From: a virus
Taxonomy: Duplodnaviria; Heunggongvirae; Uroviricota; Caudoviricetes
Virus record (IMG/VR): IMGVR_UViG_2695420792_000010
Coordinates: 1 to 13,579 of that record
Length of the DNA: 13,579 nt
Reading direction: 5' to 3' (one strand)
Shown: piece by piece, positions 774 through 12,023 of the stretch
Position numbering within the stretch: position 1 is the first letter of the stretch
How the letters are laid out: every line of letters starts with the position of its first letter
Translations under genes and position numbers: made by a program
Notes under the pieces: generated by a model
The model's input: the letters and a program-made list of their open reading frames with translations, nothing else
Databases searched by the model: none
Told to the model about the DNA's origin: nothing

Positions 774-1676
774 TTACCTTCGGTTAGCGTATGTATTTTT
801 CCAGTAATACGTCGTGTCACCACAAATCCACGGCACATCTGCAGCACTGCCACCATGGCACTGCGCGTTAAACACGGAGAGGTCAGCACGAAACTGTGTC
901 AGCATGGCTGTAAACAGCGCAGGTTGCTGTGCGTGGGTGGCGGCGCTCATGTCAAACTCTCCCTGCATCCAGCACACCGCCAGCAACACATTTTTCGGGT
1001 TCTTCTGTAATGCAGCTTTAGTGCGCGCAATCAGGTCCTGATATAACGGTTTACCCACACCCCAGCGCGCCGAATCCTGGCTGGCCCCCGTGTCCGCACT
1101 GAATGTCCCCTCAGCGCCCTGGGTGAATGCAGAACCACCACGACAGCATGGTACCAGCAGGATCCCCGCGTTATTCGGGATATACGGAAGCAGTTTTTTG
1201 GCAATATGTAAGCCCTGGCCGACACAGCCGTACTGCCCTTTGCTCAGGTCTGCCTTCGGATGATTCAGCGTACTCATATCCTGCACATCATGCAGGCAGT
1301 GGTCGGCCGGAATAATATCGTTATATCTGCAGGCAGCCCCACCCGGCGTCACTGTACTGCGGCGCGCCAGCTGTTTAATGCGCGGATCCGGAGCATCGTA
1401 TGAATCCGGCAGCGGAAGCCCTTCACCGTAAGCCATGGCATTGGACTGCCCGGCCAGTACGATGACGTAGTACCAATCCGGCTCAGTTGCACCACTGACC
1501 ACCACATCACCTTCTGCTGTAATCGCCTGCATCAGAGTATAAGGGGTTATGGCCACCGGACTACCAAACGGCTGCCAGCCCTCTTTCAGTTTATGTGTCA
1601 GCTTTTCCGCAAGATCTGATGGCGACGCCGCCCTGACAACATCATAGTGTTTAAATTCCATGGTTCTTTCCACCAT
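774..1676 (-). CDS. Prophage NanS-p-like sialate O-acetylesterase (DUF1737-like N-terminus plus SASA/GDSL-like esterase domain), short relative to typical NanS-p
   Basis: 300-aa ORF. N-terminus MEFKHYDVVRAASPSDLAEKLTHKLKEGWQPFG resembles the DUF1737 domain of prophage NanS-p; VIVLAGQSNAMAYGEG carries the GQSN esterase motif. ATG at 1676 has no Shine-Dalgarno; the ATG at 1661 is preceded by GGTGGAAAG and may be the true start. Stop TAA at 774-776. The family's C-terminal domain appears to be missing (recollection of family architecture). Confidence 0.7.
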   Translation of the reverse strand: MVERTMEFKHYDVVRAASPSDLAEKLTHKLKEGWQPFGSPVAITPYTLMQAITAEGDVVVSGATEPDWYYVIVLAGQSNAMAYGEGLPLPDSYDAPDPRIKQLARRSTVTPGGAACRYNDIIPADHCLHDVQDMSTLNHPKADLSKGQYGCVGQGLHIAKKLLPYIPNNAGILLVPCCRGGSAFTQGAEGTFSADTGASQDSARWGVGKPLYQDLIARTKAALQKNPKNVLLAVCWMQGEFDMSAATHAQQPALFTAMLTQFRADLSVFNAQCHGGSAADVPWICGDTTYYWKNTYANRR

Positions 1677-1920: not shown

Positions 1921-2256
1921 ATGAAGTGGATTGTGATTGATACAGTTATCCAGCCATCATGCGGAATATCTTTTTCAGTCATATGGAGTAAAATAAAATT
2001 AATAATCTGGTATCAATCGGATGCTTTCTTACCTCCTGAAAGTATATTTACACTGACTCACACAGGTATCATGCTCAATAACAAAGTGCTACCTGTAACC
2101 ATTTACAACATAGTACCATTCAATAAAACATTCTGGAATTTAATCAAAAACAGCCAGGAATGCCCTACAAATACAGATAACGTATTGAATGAATGCTTTA
2201 ATAACCGTTGCACTCTGCAAATATGTCCTTATGGGCTAAAACAACAAAATCCATAA
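1921..2256 (+). CDS. Hypothetical AT-rich ORF (111 aa), no recognisable family
   Basis: ATG preceded by AAGGAAAG Shine-Dalgarno-like sequence 4 nt upstream; AT-rich codon usage; Ile/Asn-rich product with 6 Cys. Could be chance translation of AT-rich DNA. Confidence 0.2.
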
Positions 2257-6099: not shown

Positions 6100-6364
6100 C
6101 GGTTGTCTCTGCTGGCGCAGCAGGTGCCAGTTGTTCAGGCTGGCGTATAAAGTATAAATAAACTGGTTCCAGTGTAAAGCCCCTACATTAATGGAATAAA
6201 AGTCAAACAACAGATTGCTGGGATAAACACAACGCTTATTATTAAAAGCGATTAGATAAATTAAATTTTAATGTTATGCAATTTTACCAGATCACCATAA
6301 CATCTCGTTTGAAACCACCGAAACAACAACCATATCAATATTGATTATGTTAAAGTGAGTAAAT

Positions 6365-6451
6365 ATGGAAAACAACAAATCTGCACATTACGCTCCTTTT
6401 TTATCTGTGATACTTTTTGTTTTATGCTGTGTGTGGGCATTATTTTTATAA
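6365..6451 (+). CDS. Small hydrophobic ORF (28 aa: MENNKSAHYAPFLSVILFVLCCVWALFL), convergent with hok
   Basis: ATG at 6365 with weak GAG Shine-Dalgarno (AAGTGAGTAAAT ATG); stop TAA 6449-6451. Single predicted transmembrane-like segment. Not in the ORF track because it is under 60 aa. Confidence 0.2.
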   Translation: MENNKSAHYAPFLSVILFVLCCVWALFL

Positions 6452-6460
6452 AAATATTTA

Positions 6461-6489
6461 CAGATAAAATAAACCCGCCGAAGCGGGTT
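6461..6489 (-). terminator. Intrinsic terminator of the hok transcript
   Basis: Stem AACCCGC (6472-6478) / GCGGGTT (6483-6489), loop CGAA; followed on the minus strand by TATTTTAT (complement of 6461-6471). Confidence 0.5.
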
Positions 6490-6557
6490 AAGCGCGGGTG
6501 CGTTGAGGATGCCTGACACATCAGAGGCGGCGAGGGATTTCTCCCTCGCCAGGTCTC

Positions 6558-6713
6558 TTACTCCTCAGGTTCGTAAGCTGTGAAGACAGCGACCTCCGTC
6601 TGGCCGGTTCGGATTCGTACCTCGCAGAGGTCTTTCCTCGTTACCAGTGCCGTCACTATGACGGTTAAACAGATGACGATAAGGGCGATTAACATCGCCT
6701 TTTGCTGCTTCAT
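6558..6713 (-). CDS. hok: Hok/Gef-family type I toxin (HokD/RelF-like small membrane toxin)
   Basis: 51-aa product MKQQKAMLIALIVICLTVIVTALVTRKDLCEVRIRTGQTEVAVFTAYEPEE matches the Hok/Gef family and, as I recall, HokD (RelF) almost exactly. AAGGAGA Shine-Dalgarno 8 nt upstream. An in-frame upstream ATG at 6770 would add 19 codons (MSHKCRLASYVPKGKEKQA). Confidence 0.85.
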   Translation of the reverse strand: MKQQKAMLIALIVICLTVIVTALVTRKDLCEVRIRTGQTEVAVFTAYEPEE

Positions 6714-7270
6714 AGCCTGCTTCTCCTTGCCTTTCGGCACGTAAGAGGCTAACCTACATTTGTGAGACATAGATTGGGCCTCAGATTAATGTTAAGCGTC
6801 TTGCAGGACGCGTAATGTTAACTGGGGCTTTTCTCTATCTGCCTTTTGGTGTTCATGCCTGAGGCAGATAGCCTCAAGCACCCGCAGCAATTCTAACTAT
6901 CCAATAGATCAATGCCAACTTCTTTTCCTGCAACATCTCTCATCATAAGTGACCAAAATTCATCCAATCAGCACAAAAGAAACATTTAAAGCGTGAATGC
7001 TACCGAACGTTCATTTCAATTACATCGTTTTGATTTTTAACAGTTTTTACCTCAACAAATCAAATGGCATTAGCATTCATCATGGAAGAAAGACTGATAA
7101 AAATGATCATTTTCAATGACTTATGATCACACCGGGTATTGCCAAGTCATTCCTTTTACGCCAGGATACCCACAAGTGAGTAGTCGAGGAGAGTTTGCCA
7201 ATTTTTGCGATATAAATTTCAATGTCCGAAGAACCATTAATTGTTAATTGATTCTGTATAAGGTATTAAC

Positions 7271-8368
7271 ATGACAATTTCATATATTCCTATTCTGAAA
7301 GCGAAACGTTCTGAGTTATCAGCTTTATCGCAGCTATTCATTGAAAAGAAATCAAAAATTTTGCCATTACTCGAAATTGAACCAGTGCCAATTGACCCTG
7401 ATTCAGGTATTGCCTTAAAGAGTTATAACGAGACTCTTATAGAGTTCGGAAAGAAAGTCTCAAAATCTTGCTCAGATATGCAAGGTGTTTATATTGATGG
7501 ATTATTAATTGAAGAGCATTTTATTTCTCCTGAAGATCATTACCCTATAATAAATGCGGTTAATCAAGTTAGAGATATGGGGATAAGAGTTATTCCTGTC
7601 AGTTCACCAACTCGCCCATCTAACTATAAAAGAGCGATTGATGAATTAATGCAGAATGAAATATGCTTGAGATTAACCACGTTAGATCTGGTTAACCCAC
7701 AATTAATAACGCATTACATTAATCATCTGGGAATTCCTTTATCAAATATTGATATAATTATTGACTTAAGAGATGAGTTAACCGAGGATAAACTTAATTC
7801 CGGCGAACTATATACTTTGGCAATGGGATTGATAAACAATCTGGCGCACCTCAATGAATACAGAAAAGTGATTCTTTCTGGGGGTTCATTTCCTACAGAT
7901 CTCAGTGATATTTCTGTTGGTCTATATTCTCAACCTCGAATCGAGTGGATTTTATGGCAGAGTTTAATGAATAGAAAAGAACTTGCCAGAAATGTGATTT
8001 ATAGTGATTATGGAGTACAGCACCCCGACTTTAATAGGCTTTCGACGCGATTCCCTAGCGTATCTGCCAGCGTCAGATACTCTGGAGATAATGACTTTTG
8101 GGTATTTCGAGGAAGAGTAGCTAATCGCTTTGGTTATGAACAATATGGTAAACATAGTGAGGATATTCTTGCTCATCGAGAATATTCAGGGCCTACATTC
8201 TGTGCGGGAGATAGAGACATAGAATATTATGCAAACGAGTATCAAGCCTACAAAGCCAATCCCTCTGGTAACTATAAATTTGGTAGCCCAGAGGTATGGC
8301 GTAGGATTGGGCAAAACCATCACATAACTAAGGTTGTTGAGCAACTCGCCACTCTTTACGGGCTTTAA
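7271..8368 (+). CDS. Uncharacterised 365-aa protein, first gene of the AT-rich convergent cassette (possibly the database family annotated as 'beta protein / sce7725')
   Basis: Clean ATG at 7271 with AAGG 9 nt upstream; stop TAA 8366-8368; uninterrupted 365 codons; strongly AT-rich, unlike the flanking phage genes. The N-terminal pattern MTISYIPILKAKRSELSAL reminds me of the 'beta protein' family, but this is unverified. Confidence 0.7.
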   Translation: MTISYIPILKAKRSELSALSQLFIEKKSKILPLLEIEPVPIDPDSGIALKSYNETLIEFGKKVSKSCSDMQGVYIDGLLIEEHFISPEDHYPIINAVNQVRDMGIRVIPVSSPTRPSNYKRAIDELMQNEICLRLTTLDLVNPQLITHYINHLGIPLSNIDIIIDLRDELTEDKLNSGELYTLAMGLINNLAHLNEYRKVILSGGSFPTDLSDISVGLYSQPRIEWILWQSLMNRKELARNVIYSDYGVQHPDFNRLSTRFPSVSASVRYSGDNDFWVFRGRVANRFGYEQYGKHSEDILAHREYSGPTFCAGDRDIEYYANEYQAYKANPSGNYKFGSPEVWRRIGQNHHITKVVEQLATLYGL

Positions 8369-8906
8369 GTTTAACTCGAACAGCTTCACGAAGCTCGCCA
8401 ACATCCATACTATTGGCGAGTTTTGACCATAAGACGCGTTTAGGTTTATTTTTCAAATTCTGTAGCTCCCCTACATCACTTAATAGGGAAAGCAATTCAT
8501 CTTTCCAAAGAAGCATTGTTAAGGAAAGTTTGTCCACTTGTGGATTCAACTTGCTAGTTCGAATTGTTTTTAAATGGATACCTTGCCGTGCACCTTGCGT
8601 AACTTGCTTTATCCCCCACCATGATGGAACTATGCTTAAAGCATCATAAAGATGGCAATCAGAGACAACCAAAGTTACTTTATCCATCACTGATGAGTAA
8701 TGTTGCACCTGCGCTGGTAATCTGAGCAAGTTATCACTCTTGCTCTTCAACTCATAACCATGTATAAGCCCATTGATCACTGCTATATCAGCTCTGCTAG
8801 CCCCTAGATTCATCGTAAACTCATCAATGATTAGGGTGTCAGGATCTTTATGATGATCTCTCAGAATCTTGGCATGCACAGCCTTTCTTACATCAATGTC
8901 TCTCAT
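8328..8906 (-). CDS. Uncharacterised 192-aa protein with N-terminal PD-(D/E)xK nuclease-like motif (possibly 'sce7726 family'), second gene of the AT-rich cassette
   Basis: ATG at 8906, stop TAG at 8328-8330. Motif LIIDEF...RADIAVINGLIHGYELKS fits the restriction-endonuclease fold pattern (D40 ... E52-x-K54, preceded by D28/E29). AT-rich. Weak Shine-Dalgarno. Confidence 0.7.
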   Translation of the reverse strand: MRDIDVRKAVHAKILRDHHKDPDTLIIDEFTMNLGASRADIAVINGLIHGYELKSKSDNLLRLPAQVQHYSSVMDKVTLVVSDCHLYDALSIVPSWWGIKQVTQGARQGIHLKTIRTSKLNPQVDKLSLTMLLWKDELLSLLSDVGELQNLKNKPKRVLWSKLANSMDVGELREAVRVKLKARKEWRVAQQP

Positions 8907-9211
8907 ACCATAGTTGCGCTTTCATCGACTCTCTCAAGCCATGATTCTATATCATGGTTCGCATGAATGCCATTTGATATGACCAGTGGTTAAACATTGC
9001 ACAGAAAAGTGGATGTGTATTTTAACAAAAGCAATGACGGCTAACCATGTTGGTATGTCGATAAAATGTTTCAACGTAAGCATTATCTGTTCCGCCCTTT
9101 CAGACGGCCTCCTGATGTTCTGAGGGTGCAGAATCCCTCCGGTTAAGGATTTAATAAAAATCGTTTCTGATTTAAATCTTCAGTATTTAGTTGTTAGTCG
9201 GTTTATAGCCT

Positions 9212-9523
9212 TTATGCTTCGGCCTTATTTCTCAGCCATACACAAACCGGGCCATCTTCGGTGTCATGTATTGAACCAATAAACCATCCATTGCCCTCTG
9301 GTCGTTCCGGTTCCCATGCAGAAATATCAGCATCACACGCATCAAGGTCAGCACATCCTTCATCTCTGAAGCAGAGGACGTATTGAAGATTATTTTCCTC
9401 CATCCAGGCGTTAGACTCTTCCGTTGAAATATATTCCCGACCGTCACAGAATTTCTCATATTCAGGATGTGCCCAGCAGCCATATTCATCACGTTCTACT
9501 GGTATTTCTTTAATTTCATTCAT
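9212..9523 (-). CDS. Hypothetical acidic phage protein (103 aa)
   Basis: ATG at 9523 with GGGAGA Shine-Dalgarno; start overlaps the stop of the upstream ORF by 8 nt; Cys/Asp/Glu-rich; family not recognised. Confidence 0.5.
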   Translation of the reverse strand: MNEIKEIPVERDEYGCWAHPEYEKFCDGREYISTEESNAWMEENNLQYVLCFRDEGCADLDACDADISAWEPERPEGNGWFIGSIHDTEDGPVCVWLRNKAEA

Positions 9524-9770
9524 TTCTGTTCTCCCACGTTTTCAGACTTTCACCACAGAACGGACAAAATGAAACCCGAACTGGTAATTTAGAAAATTCA
9601 CCGGAACGCAACATCACAAAATCAGGACCGCGAGTTAAACTCTCATTCCAGATTTTGTATATCAGCAGACCTTTTCGCATCGTGTATTCAGCATCATGCT
9701 CAAGGGACTTTGCCAGTGCTGCGCATGGTTCTATCTTGTTGCCATTAACCTGGCATTTTGATTCACTCAC
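9516..9770 (-). CDS. Hypothetical phage protein (84 aa) with C-terminal CPFCG zinc-ribbon-like motif
   Basis: GTG start at 9770 overlapping the upstream stop as GTGA (translational coupling); no internal ATG near the 5' end. Confidence 0.45.
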   Translation of the reverse strand: MSESKCQVNGNKIEPCAALAKSLEHDAEYTMRKGLLIYKIWNESLTRGPDFVMLRSGEFSKLPVRVSFCPFCGESLKTWENRNE

Positions 9771-10189
9771 CGCACCTCCTCCTCAAAATTCCCCTGATAA
9801 AACGCCAGTACGCGCTGCATAGCTTCACTCTTCCGGCACTCGCGACAGATTATGTTTAGGCGCCTGTCGTAGCGGCGTATTTCGCCGTCTGGTAACGACC
9901 AGATAAGGTCCGGATCAACTACTGCAGGTTTCTTCACCTTTGTCCTTGAGAGTTTTTTGCGGGCATTTTGCCAGTCCTTACGAGCCTGTTCAGACGGGAA
10001 TAACCCGTAACCAGAGTTGTATACATCGCCACTTGCAACCAGCTCTCTGGCGAGAACGCTGATCAGATATCTTGTCGCACCTGTTTTAGCTTCCAGTTGT
10101 CGTAACGTCTCGCGACCGCTCTGGCGCACAAGTTCGACCACCTGCCCTTTAATTTTTTCCCGCTCTTCCTGTGTAAAAACTTTTACCAC
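9767..10189 (-). CDS. Hypothetical basic phage protein (140 aa) downstream of the replication initiator
   Basis: GTG start at 10189 preceded by a perfect AAGGAGG Shine-Dalgarno; Lys/Arg-rich; CRECRK motif; family not recognised. Confidence 0.5.
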   Translation of the reverse strand: MVKVFTQEEREKIKGQVVELVRQSGRETLRQLEAKTGATRYLISVLARELVASGDVYNSGYGLFPSEQARKDWQNARKKLSRTKVKKPAVVDPDLIWSLPDGEIRRYDRRLNIICRECRKSEAMQRVLAFYQGNFEEEVR

Positions 10190-10229
10190 AAGTCCTCCTT
10201 AAAATTACCTCATGACCTGAAATCAACAC

Positions 10230-11300
10230 TTATCCCCTGAAACCAAGCGGAATTTCTGTATCAGGTTCAGAAATATGATTCACACAACGCTGGTTGTTCG
10301 TGCCGCTTACCGGGAGCAACCAGGGGTTCTCAAAATTCCGGTCCGGTCCAAAAAACGTCGTCGCTCGCTGAACAAATTCCGTTCCCGTTTTCCCGGTAGC
10401 CGCCAGGTATCTTGCGTAACGCCTCACGCCATCCAGCATGGCCTCTGGTGGCACCCCCTCGCGTAATCTGGCCTTCCAGGCACTGAAAGCGGATTTCTTC
10501 GGATTTGCCCCGGCACGCAACGGGTACTCCCGCCAGACCTGTTCGAACACATCCGGATAATCCACTCGTCCCACAGACTGCCCGGTTTTTTCCGGGACTA
10601 CCCGATCGGCTTCCCGCTGAATGGCGGAATCGGCTTCAGGCTGCTGCAGTTGGTGTGATTGCTCCGGCCTTGCGGTCATCACCTGCTGCACAGCGCCCGA
10701 ATCGGCTTTCAGCGCATACGCTGAATCGGCTTCCGGTGTCGTGCCTGCTGGCTGACCAGGATTGACGGTCTGAACATCCCCTGCCTGGTTCGTGGCATTT
10801 TTTACGCCATGGACCATAGTGTTTTGATCTTCTTGATCTGTATCTTTATCTGTATCTTTATCTGTCGTGACTTGTCGTGACATGTGCGTGACATTTCGTG
10901 ACGCGCCGTGACAATCGCCATTTTGTTCCCGCTTTCTTTCCCTCTCTCGCTGCGCCCTCTTGCGCTCTGCAGGAGATTTTGCGGTTTGCGAAATATTGCC
11001 GTTGTCCTCTTTAAGCACCTGGCGTTTTTCCCATCCAGTGATTAAATCACCATCAAGTACCCGCCCCTGCATCGTCTGCAAAATTGAATCAATTACCTCT
11101 TCTGTCACGTCGAGCGCACTTGCCAAATCTTCTGTCGTGACATCAATGTGACCTCGCGTGACATTTCGTGACGCGCTTACCAATAGGTGGATATACACTG
11201 CCATCACTGTTGCAATTGGCTGCCCTGACACCCTGGCAATTGTTCGCCACTTAGGGTCATTTGGCATGTCATGCCATAATCTGAGCCAGGCGTTAGCCAT
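10230..11300 (-). CDS. Phage replication initiator / replisome-organizer (O-like) protein containing the origin iterons
   Basis: ATG at 11300 preceded by AGAGGTGAG (a GTG two codons upstream at 11306 is the ORF-track start). N-terminus ANAWLRLWHDMPNDPKWRTIARVSGQPIATVMAVYIHLL resembles the phage replisome-organizer N-terminal domain (recollection). Internal direct-repeat arrays typical of an origin inside an O gene. Confidence 0.65.
   Translation of the reverse strand: MANAWLRLWHDMPNDPKWRTIARVSGQPIATVMAVYIHLLVSASRNVTRGHIDVTTEDLASALDVTEEVIDSILQTMQGRVLDGDLITGWEKRQVLKEDNGNISQTAKSPAERKRAQRERERKREQNGDCHGASRNVTHMSRQVTTDKDTDKDTDQEDQNTMVHGVKNATNQAGDVQTVNPGQPAGTTPEADSAYALKADSGAVQQVMTARPEQSHQLQQPEADSAIQREADRVVPEKTGQSVGRVDYPDVFEQVWREYPLRAGANPKKSAFSAWKARLREGVPPEAMLDGVRRYARYLAATGKTGTEFVQRATTFFGPDRNFENPWLLPVSGTNNQRCVNHISEPDTEIPLGFRG
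10839..10862. repeat. Tandem 12-bp AT-rich repeat (TGTATCTTTATC x2) adjacent to the iteron array, encoding DKDTDKDT in the O-like linker
   Basis: Exact tandem duplication at 10839-10850 and 10851-10862, preceded by TGATCT-TCT-TGATCT. Confidence 0.6.
10862..10912. repeat. Iteron array 1: five direct CGTGAC repeats at 10-11-bp spacing (candidate origin)
   Basis: CGTGAC at 10866, 10876, 10887, 10897 and 10907, roughly one helical turn apart, next to an AT-rich tract. Confidence 0.55.
11104..11172. repeat. Iteron array 2: (C/T)GTGAC repeats at about 10-bp spacing plus one inverted copy
   Basis: CGTGAC at 11136, 11157 and 11167; TGTGAC at 11147; inverted GTCACG at 11104-11109. The 21-bp string GCGTGACATTTCGTGACGCGC is identical at 10886-10906 and 11156-11176. 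Confidence 0.5.
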
Positions 11301-11371
11301 ACTCACCTCTTTTGATACCGAATCTTTTTACTCACAAATTGCCGGAAGTGATCTGGTATGAATATCGCGAG

Positions 11372-11797
11372 TCAATGCACAGCCACAATATTTCCTGCAG
11401 GGCCACCACGATTCATCTGGTTGAAACCAGCGATCGCCACTGCGACAAAATCATCAGCGTCTCTCACCAGTCGTTCCCGCGTCTCCACTAGTTCCCGAAA
11501 ATAGGCTGAGCTATGGCTGCGCATTCGGGCCACCAGCAGAGGCGGCATTGCTTTTTCGATAGCTGGTAACAACGCCTGAATTTTTTTAACCGCATCAGGG
11601 GTGTCTTTCTCCACCCAGCGGAAAATTTTCTGAGTATTGCGAGCCAGGGCTTCCGGATGGCTGTCGTCATACAGTTCCGGGAACGTCATTCCCAGCTCGA
11701 AATACGCTTTGGTAATTTTCGCAGCCGGTACTTTTTCGCCGTCCGGATGCGCCCAGGCATTCATCGCCATGCGGATATGTTCATGCTTGATTTTCAT
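11372..11797 (-). CDS. ydaT: YdaT-like protein (CII-position regulator / toxin YdaT family)
   Basis: 141 aa starting MKIKHEHIRMAMNAWAHPDGEK and ending ...NIVAVH, resembling Rac YdaT as recalled. ATG at 11797 preceded by AAGGGGGG. ORF-track start at 11869 lacks a Shine-Dalgarno and overlaps the cro-like gene. Confidence 0.7.
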   Translation of the reverse strand: MKIKHEHIRMAMNAWAHPDGEKVPAAKITKAYFELGMTFPELYDDSHPEALARNTQKIFRWVEKDTPDAVKKIQALLPAIEKAMPPLLVARMRSHSSAYFRELVETRERLVRDADDFVAVAIAGFNQMNRGGPAGNIVAVH

Positions 11798-12023
11798 GAA
11801 TCCCCCCTTGGTTAGAAGGCGGATTATGATCAGAACCGGGAATGACAACCGTCGGTATGTGTAACTCATATTTGAGCGCCCCGGCAGTGACTGCCTGAAT
11901 TAGCAACGCCCATTTCCACGGAACCTCTTCCCCCCACATGCTGACTGTGGTTTTTGACGTTCCTAGAGCTGCGGCTGTTTTAACAACTCCGCCAAAATAG
12001 CCTAATACTTCTGATTTTTTCAT
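11781..12023 (-). CDS. Cro-like small HTH regulator (DicC/YdaS family)
   Basis: 80 aa MKKSEVLGYFGGVVKTAAALGTSKTTVSMWGEEVP...; HTH-like segment; ATG at 12023 preceded by GGAG; divergent from the CI-like gene across an operator-bearing intergenic region. Confidence 0.7.
   Translation of the reverse strand: MKKSEVLGYFGGVVKTAAALGTSKTTVSMWGEEVPWKWALLIQAVTAGALKYELHIPTVVIPGSDHNPPSNQGGIHENQA

Follow-up and report, generated by a model that had tools for sequence, protein, structure and literature searches.

The locus examined here raises the question of what two convergent, AT-rich genes contribute to the lambdoid prophage that carries them, and whether together they form an anti-phage system. The genes lie in IMG/VR record IMGVR_UViG_2695420792_000010, a stretch of 13,579 nucleotides (nt) that we refer to as the window and on whose full length all window positions are counted, and they encode proteins of 365 and 192 amino acids (aa). 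An earlier note on this DNA had proposed that they constitute an uncharacterised defence module. Our analysis showed that the two proteins are homologues of satellite phage P4 beta and cII, and that the 365-aa protein is also related to component C of the validated PD-lambda-2 system. The defence part of the proposal thus gains from homology to validated anti-phage systems and from the nuclease fold of the smaller protein, whereas the families themselves can no longer be considered novel or uncharacterised.

We favour, with moderate confidence, the interpretation that the cassette is a minimal, gop-less beta-cII anti-phage or exclusion module that combines a DNase effector with an enzyme-like beta sensor or regulator. 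The lambdoid prophage most likely carries this pair as exchangeable cargo to exclude competing phages. The interpretation builds on homology to P4, on the folds of the two proteins, on invariant catalytic residues, on convergent linkage and on location in mobile elements, each of which was observed here. Both families had already been named; the value of the analysis lies in recognising beta-cII as a common and very widespread core, shared by P4 gop-beta-cII and PD-lambda-2.

Folds of the beta and cII-like proteins

The description of the locus as two long, convergent open reading frames (ORFs) of low GC content held. The GC fractions of the beta and nuclease genes are 0.372 and 0.409, as against 0.513 and 0.483 in the flanking phage genes. 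Because a stop-free run in the cargo segment reaches 368 codons, compared with a maximum of 180 in 1000 shuffles, and because family hidden Markov models (HMMs) match both ORFs over their full length, we regard both as real genes.

The 192-aa protein belongs to the sce7726 family, as had been suggested in the earlier note. It scores 191.1 bits against NCBIfam NF033832 (cut-off 70), with residues 1–184 aligned to profile positions 1–183 of 184, and also matches the PADLOC model “cll” at 2.4e-28. The homologues listed for this protein all carry a precomputed Pfam assignment to PF26915 (Phage_P4_cII), and we refer to it as cII-like. Its core adopts the restriction-endonuclease-like alpha/beta fold of the PD-(D/E)xK superfamily. 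Residues E29, D40, E52, K54 and Q66 are invariant in an alignment of 38 sequences and also across 99 non-redundant homologues including P4 cII; they provide the D ... (D/E)-x-K motif and the glutamate on an upstream helix, including the D40...E52-L-K54 signature first picked out in the earlier note. We infer that this protein has DNase activity and that, in the two-gene form, it is the sole candidate effector.

Sequence and profile searches of PDB sequences returned nothing significant for the 192-aa or the 365-aa protein. In comparison with the PD-(D/E)xK nucleases SPO1766 (3dnx), Can2, NucS and type II restriction endonucleases, the cII-like protein shows no detectable sequence similarity to solved structures, features a basic helical C-terminal extension specific to its family, and has no fused CARF, SAVED or other sensor domain. 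Its structural neighbour SPO1766 is MmcB-like.

The 365-aa protein is a member of Pfam family PF14350 (Beta_protein; 2.3e-51, 175.7 bits against a cut-off of 27), residues 5–356 covering profile positions 1–341 of 342, in agreement with the name “beta protein” suggested in the earlier note. The alternative label sce7725 could not be sustained: a search of NCBIfam gave nothing at E ≤ 0.1 for this protein, and six other beta proteins, including sce7726 neighbours in Sorangium and Nannocystis, had no NCBIfam match at E ≤ 0.01. Among PADLOC models, the protein is nearer to those of PD-Lambda-2_C (PDLC03983, 6.5e-41; PDLC03984, 1.3e-37; both full length) than to the P4 “beta” model, to which the match is weak and localised to the N-terminus (1e-3). 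Clustering at 50% identity divides the beta family into 5,112 clusters, of which the top 150 consist entirely of single-domain proteins 348–421 aa long.

Whereas no motif had previously been assigned to it, the beta protein is an eight-fold beta/alpha (TIM) barrel with an invariant constellation of acidic and basic residues. Y5, P7, P32, D165 and D246 are invariant among non-redundant homologues, and E15, D76, P109, W343 and H351 are 97–99% conserved; conserved acidic residues are found at the strand ends, and a G-G-S-F-P loop follows strand 7. The conserved acidic and basic constellation suggests an enzyme. Since it resembles an active site, we consider beta likelier to be an enzyme or a ligand sensor than a passive antitoxin. 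A Foldseek search against the PDB retrieved generic TIM barrels only, for the most part enzymes with phosphate-binding barrels.

The eight-stranded beta/alpha barrel is common to beta, phosphate-binding TIM-barrel enzymes and TGT/DpdA-type transglycosylases. This likeness would accommodate a restriction-modification (R-M)-like arrangement, in which beta modifies nucleic acid in the manner of the TGT-like DNA transglycosylase DpdA and thereby marks self, and the nuclease cuts according to the absence or presence of the mark. We consider this arrangement unlikely; as only generic barrels were matched, the fold of beta indicates no specific activity.

Convergent linkage of the pair across genomes and viruses

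The distribution of the pair was analysed in two scans. A genome scan with an sce7726 alignment, taking one genome per species, found 450 relatives, of which 80 loci were examined; these came from Proteobacteria, Firmicutes, Acidobacteriota, Chloroflexota, Myxococcota, Actinomycetota, candidate phyla radiation (CPR) lineages and others. The second scan covered 58 viral contigs and used a beta alignment close to the subfamily of the window protein; because this closer alignment served as the query, the viral sample is biased to that subfamily. A convergent beta gene is positioned immediately downstream of the sce7726 gene in 77 of the 80 genome loci, and the 3' ends overlap in 75 of these 77 (median 53 nt). 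On the viral contigs, a convergent, overlapping cII-like gene accompanies every intact beta. Taken over both scans, about 130 loci, the linkage of beta and cII is near-obligate and convergent, and the co-occurrence on which the earlier note had made its proposal depend is present.

Three genome loci had no beta gene, two of them being cut by contig ends. The third (L012:5001-6810), in a prophage lysis-region slot, is the one evaluable case of sce7726 lacking beta; there the sce7726 gene is followed by two co-directional ORFs, which by eye were judged protein-kinase-like (165 aa) and PP2C-phosphatase-like (241 aa).

Pairwise identities of the beta proteins track those of the nuclease proteins with a Pearson coefficient of 0.85 and a Spearman coefficient of 0.34. 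Most loci contain no co-directional neighbour of either gene, and with a third operonic gene missing from most loci the pair appears self-sufficient. A 449-aa neighbour in Stenotrophomonas loci was considered as a further part of the system and rejected; by inspection it resembles the housekeeping GTPase MnmE.

Not all pairs are located in recognisable phages: others reside on a plasmid or at chromosomal loci. Enterobacterial copies neighbour Abi_2, Fic or HNH cargo within P4-like primase islands, a type II R-M system is situated about 3.5 kb from an Acinetobacter copy, and a Vibrio copy adjoins an Ogr/Delta gene. E. coli itself has a second, divergent beta-cII cassette (L084:3134-4763; also L085 and L086), encoding proteins of 206 and 355 aa, the cII-like one being 54% identical to that of the window; this cassette occupies a moron slot of a lambdoid prophage, flanked by an Rz-type lysis gene and by terminase Nu1.

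Tight linkage of two genes is also what a toxin-antitoxin (TA) or addiction system would show. In such a system, the nuclease would be the toxin and beta the antitoxin, the prophage would be stabilised, and any anti-phage effect would be secondary. The cassette adjoins hok/sok, in a slot that holds relBE in K-12; P4 beta neutralises Gop; and gop-beta-cII and PD-lambda-2 have been described as TA-like (PMC9519451; PMC9122126; bioRxiv 10.1101/2023.04.06.535777). A natural beta-null allele argues in the other direction. On one prophage contig (L117:4001-7661), beta is broken near residue 231 by an inversion flanked by IS1, and the nuclease gene remains intact with 495 nt of its native upstream DNA, which suggests that loss of beta is tolerated, although expression and suppressor mutations could matter. 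Furthermore, with its 365 aa and its conserved active-site-like constellation beta is unlike typical antitoxins, the two genes are convergent rather than arranged as a co-transcribed, autoregulated operon, and component C is not needed to neutralise the PD-lambda-2 toxin (PMC9519451). On balance, we judge a TA function improbable.

Truncated beta sequences were encountered elsewhere as well: a 215-aa truncated beta (P0155) represents 123 member sequences, and no cII-like gene lies within 4 kb of a beta truncated by IS1 at one further locus (L119).

The breadth of this distribution gives the window its significance. Two separately named anti-phage systems have a widespread core pair in common, with sce7726 relatives in at least 450 species-level genomes, and our results suggest that the module in its commonest form escapes the current detection rules of PADLOC and DefenseFinder. 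The simplest natural form of the core is available in the window, where 2.2 kb of E. coli prophage DNA contain the two genes together with their native regulatory sequences. Such a compact example would be useful for addressing the function of beta, the nuclease as effector, and the reason for the conserved convergent overlap.

The prophage cargo slot

The features of the cassette and of the slot that it occupies are given in Table 1.

Table 1. Coordinates of the beta-cII cassette and bordering features in the window.
Feature	Positions	Strand	Description
beta-family gene	7271..8368	+	365 aa; divergent TIM-barrel protein, homologue of P4 beta and PD-lambda-2 component C
cII-like / sce7726 gene	8328..8906	-	192 aa; PD-(D/E)xK nuclease domain, then basic helical C-terminal region
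Catalytic signature codons E29 ... D40 ... E52-x-K54	8745..8822	-	Invariance in homologue alignments
3'-end overlap of the convergent pair, 41 nt	8328..8368	.	ORF coordinates; terminator-free
Candidate promoter-like site ATGGCA-18-TAGAAT	8944..8973	-	5' of nuclease gene; consensus scan, 9/12 matches
AT-rich cargo segment, ~2.2 kb	6896..9091	.	GC 0.377; replaces ~1.1 kb of unrelated small genes of sister phage
hok	6558-6770		Borders cassette slot
sok RNA	6708-6883		Rfam match; beside hok

No terminator-like site was found between the beta and nuclease genes, and terminator-free convergent transcription may couple their expression. The total of promoter-like sites across the region is not above that of shuffles, so the site upstream of the nuclease gene is only a candidate. 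A search for a hidden third gene found small ORFs at 6997-7247 and 8952-9123 that are unconserved and have no PADLOC match; the + strand of 6771-7270 contains only ORFs of 40 and 43 aa, which are unconserved in related cassettes and likewise have no PADLOC match.

The surroundings, read on the minus strand, are those of a lambdoid prophage of the Rac/Qin type. The hok side comprises, in order, a SASA esterase, tRNA-Arg and tRNA-Met, antiterminator Q, RusA, DUF968, hok/sok and the cassette. On the other side are DUF977, a replication-type gene, YdaT, a P22-Cro-like gene and an S24 repressor, which corroborates the placement between hok and the replication-side genes proposed from the sequence. 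In blastn comparison with the sister phage vB_EcoS-640R1 (L002), homology ends at window position 6895 and restarts at 9092; where the window has the cassette, the sister phage contains four small genes unrelated to it. The equivalent slot of K-12 Qin, beside hokD, contains relE-relB-ydfV-flxA, in agreement with the earlier note, which placed relBE at that position. The site is an exchangeable prophage cargo slot, which the earlier note had correctly recognised.

A near-identical cassette (99.7–99.8%) is present in 93 of 5,426 complete E. coli genomes, where annotation (PGAP) labels the pair “beta family protein | sce7726 family protein”. It is also found on a second prophage backbone, with window 6117-10198 as the sole region in common. 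In strain SA53-3 (phage Rac-SA53), an IS1 element is inserted 5' of the nuclease gene; as both genes are intact, this allele is uninformative.

Exchangeability bears on a further interpretation, according to which the pair would serve the life cycle of the element rather than immunity, through lysogeny control or through DNA repair or processing for the prophage or satellite. Two items are the sole hints in its favour: P4 cII is said to have been named, in work of 1990 attributed to Ghisotti, for a clear-plaque (lysogeny) phenotype, and the structural neighbour of the cII-like protein is MmcB-like, as mentioned. The genes are non-essential, being replaced by unrelated cargo in sister phages; the pair also resides on plasmid and chromosomal loci outside recognisable phages; and homologous three-gene systems gave anti-phage phenotypes (PMC9519451; PMC9122126). 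We consider a life-cycle role doubtful. A counter-defence role was also ranked low, the homologous systems having shown defence phenotypes.

Several features lie elsewhere in the window. The segment at 1-640 has a GC fraction of about 0.6, a strong AT skew (-0.46) and, on either strand, long ORFs that are rich in proline or basic; it is probably part of a gene that runs beyond the window edge. The gene at 774-1676 (-) encodes a 300-aa protein with DUF1737 and sialate O-acetylesterase (SASA) domains, a type of protein carried by Stx-type prophages. A second AT-rich stretch (1600-2260, GC about 0.32) includes a 111-aa ORF at 1921-2256 (+) and adjoins an STnc100 small RNA match at 2282-2471 (-; 129 bits). 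At the position of replication protein O, a 358-aa ORF (10230-11306, -) with an acidic TDKDTDKDTD run had no match in a Pfam search, and the next gene (11372-11869, -) encodes a YdaT_toxin domain.

Relation to PD-lambda-2 and P4 gop-beta-cII

PD-lambda-2 as published comprises three genes and is defined without a nuclease gene. Its Xre-peptidase (B) is toxic and is neutralised by the HigB-like component A, whereas the beta component C is dispensable for toxin neutralisation and required for defence (Vassallo et al, 2022; PMC9519451). Neither A nor B was found in the window. However, PD-lambda-2-type genes do occur beside the core pair. Among the 77 beta-bearing genome loci, 14 have an Xre/IrrE-peptidase gene directly 5' of beta, and nine of these 14 also have a HigB-like gene; these upstream genes match PADLOC PD-Lambda-2_A (1.5e-32) and PD-Lambda-2_B (1.5e-130), for example in L042. 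The genes 5' of beta thus vary, from gop to HigB and Xre-peptidase, and on this basis beta-cII is best seen as the conserved core and the published toxins as accessories.

PD-lambda-2-type loci with a fourth, convergent sce7726 gene include L042:4890-8171 and L154:2606-5909; further loci of this type with an sce7726 gene are L021, L038, L044, L048, L058, L059, L074, L076, L077, L080, L082 and L083. An annotated Sinorhizobium plasmid has the order XRE regulator, beta, convergent sce7726. On the Acinetobacter NDM-1 plasmid pAC1633-1 (L153:4232-5502), the ImmA/IrrE peptidase gene is followed by only a 66-aa ORF at the position expected for beta and then by an IS30-family element belonging to the blaNDM-1 transposon; we take this beta to have been cut by the IS30-family insertion. 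Among the fosmid peaks that Vassallo et al obtained by selection with lambda is one labelled “Qin cryptic prophage genes”, for which the cloned candidates gave no protection (PMC9519451).

Several considerations weigh against the interpretation of the cassette as a module with a DNase effector and an enzyme-like beta regulator. The reported naming of cII hints at a regulatory rather than an effector role, and the generic barrel of beta, as discussed above, specifies no activity. In the published relatives, toxicity has been demonstrated for Gop or the Xre-peptidase rather than for the nuclease. The published PD-lambda-2 clone extends 396 nt beyond the end of gene C; a complete cII-like gene needs at least 561 nt, with an overlap of at most 158 nt, so the cloned DNA is too short to contain it and PD-lambda-2 probably defends without the nuclease. 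In the window, PADLOC cannot call a complete system, as gop, A and B are all missing, and searches of the literature on both families and related systems found no study of the two-gene form or of a biochemical mechanism.

We also put forward, more tentatively, a broader possibility: that the pair is an ancient, self-contained two-component immune core spread over many phyla, in which beta acts on or senses a phosphorylated small molecule or a nucleic-acid mark that gates the nuclease. If so, Gop and HigB/Xre-peptidase would be add-on effectors on the same sensor, gop-beta-cII and PD-lambda-2 would belong to one family, and the convergent nuclease gene would have been overlooked in the definition of PD-lambda-2.

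The closest comparison for the favoured two-gene module is the P4 locus, named “Rst_gop_beta_cll” in DefenseFinder and PADLOC, in which gop (247-648, +), beta (651-1718, +) and cII (1746-2540, -) are annotated. As in the window, P4 beta and cII are convergent; P4 beta is a PF14350 member (191 bits) like the 365-aa protein, and P4 cII is an NF033832 sce7726 member (2.5e-44) like the 192-aa protein. Direct BLASTP comparison gave E values of 6e-8 for beta (22% identity) and 2e-17 for cII (28% identity). In both cases the pair is non-essential cargo of a mobile element, the P4 module residing in the P4 hotspot and the window cassette in a lambdoid prophage slot beside hok. The two loci differ in that P4 has gop, a gene for a small protein with two predicted transmembrane segments that matches the PADLOC gop model at 4.8e-70, whereas the window has no ORF of at least 50 aa 5' of beta and no PADLOC gop match. 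In addition, cII is 264 aa long in P4 and 192 aa in the window, and the P4 3' ends are 27 nt apart with an annotated terminator, whereas those of the window overlap.

A gop-beta-cII clone carrying the native promoter confers resistance to lambda and P1 (Rousset et al, 2022; PMC9122126); such protection has been reported only for the three-gene P4 locus. That report describes Gop as toxic when beta is missing, and the phage accessory gene orf184 triggers toxicity of the ECOR59 gop-beta-cII locus (Silas et al; bioRxiv 10.1101/2023.04.06.535777). By analogy, beta in the window may hold the system off, or may turn it on upon encountering a phage factor, as orf184 does for gop-beta-cII. The barrel would then serve as an enzyme-like sensor or regulator, possibly with a phosphorylated ligand, and the cII-like PD-(D/E)xK protein would act as the DNase effector. 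The window contains the convergent beta and cII homologues that characterise gop-beta-cII; because the named families are kept and the defining toxin genes are missing, the cassette counts as a variant of a validated defence lineage.

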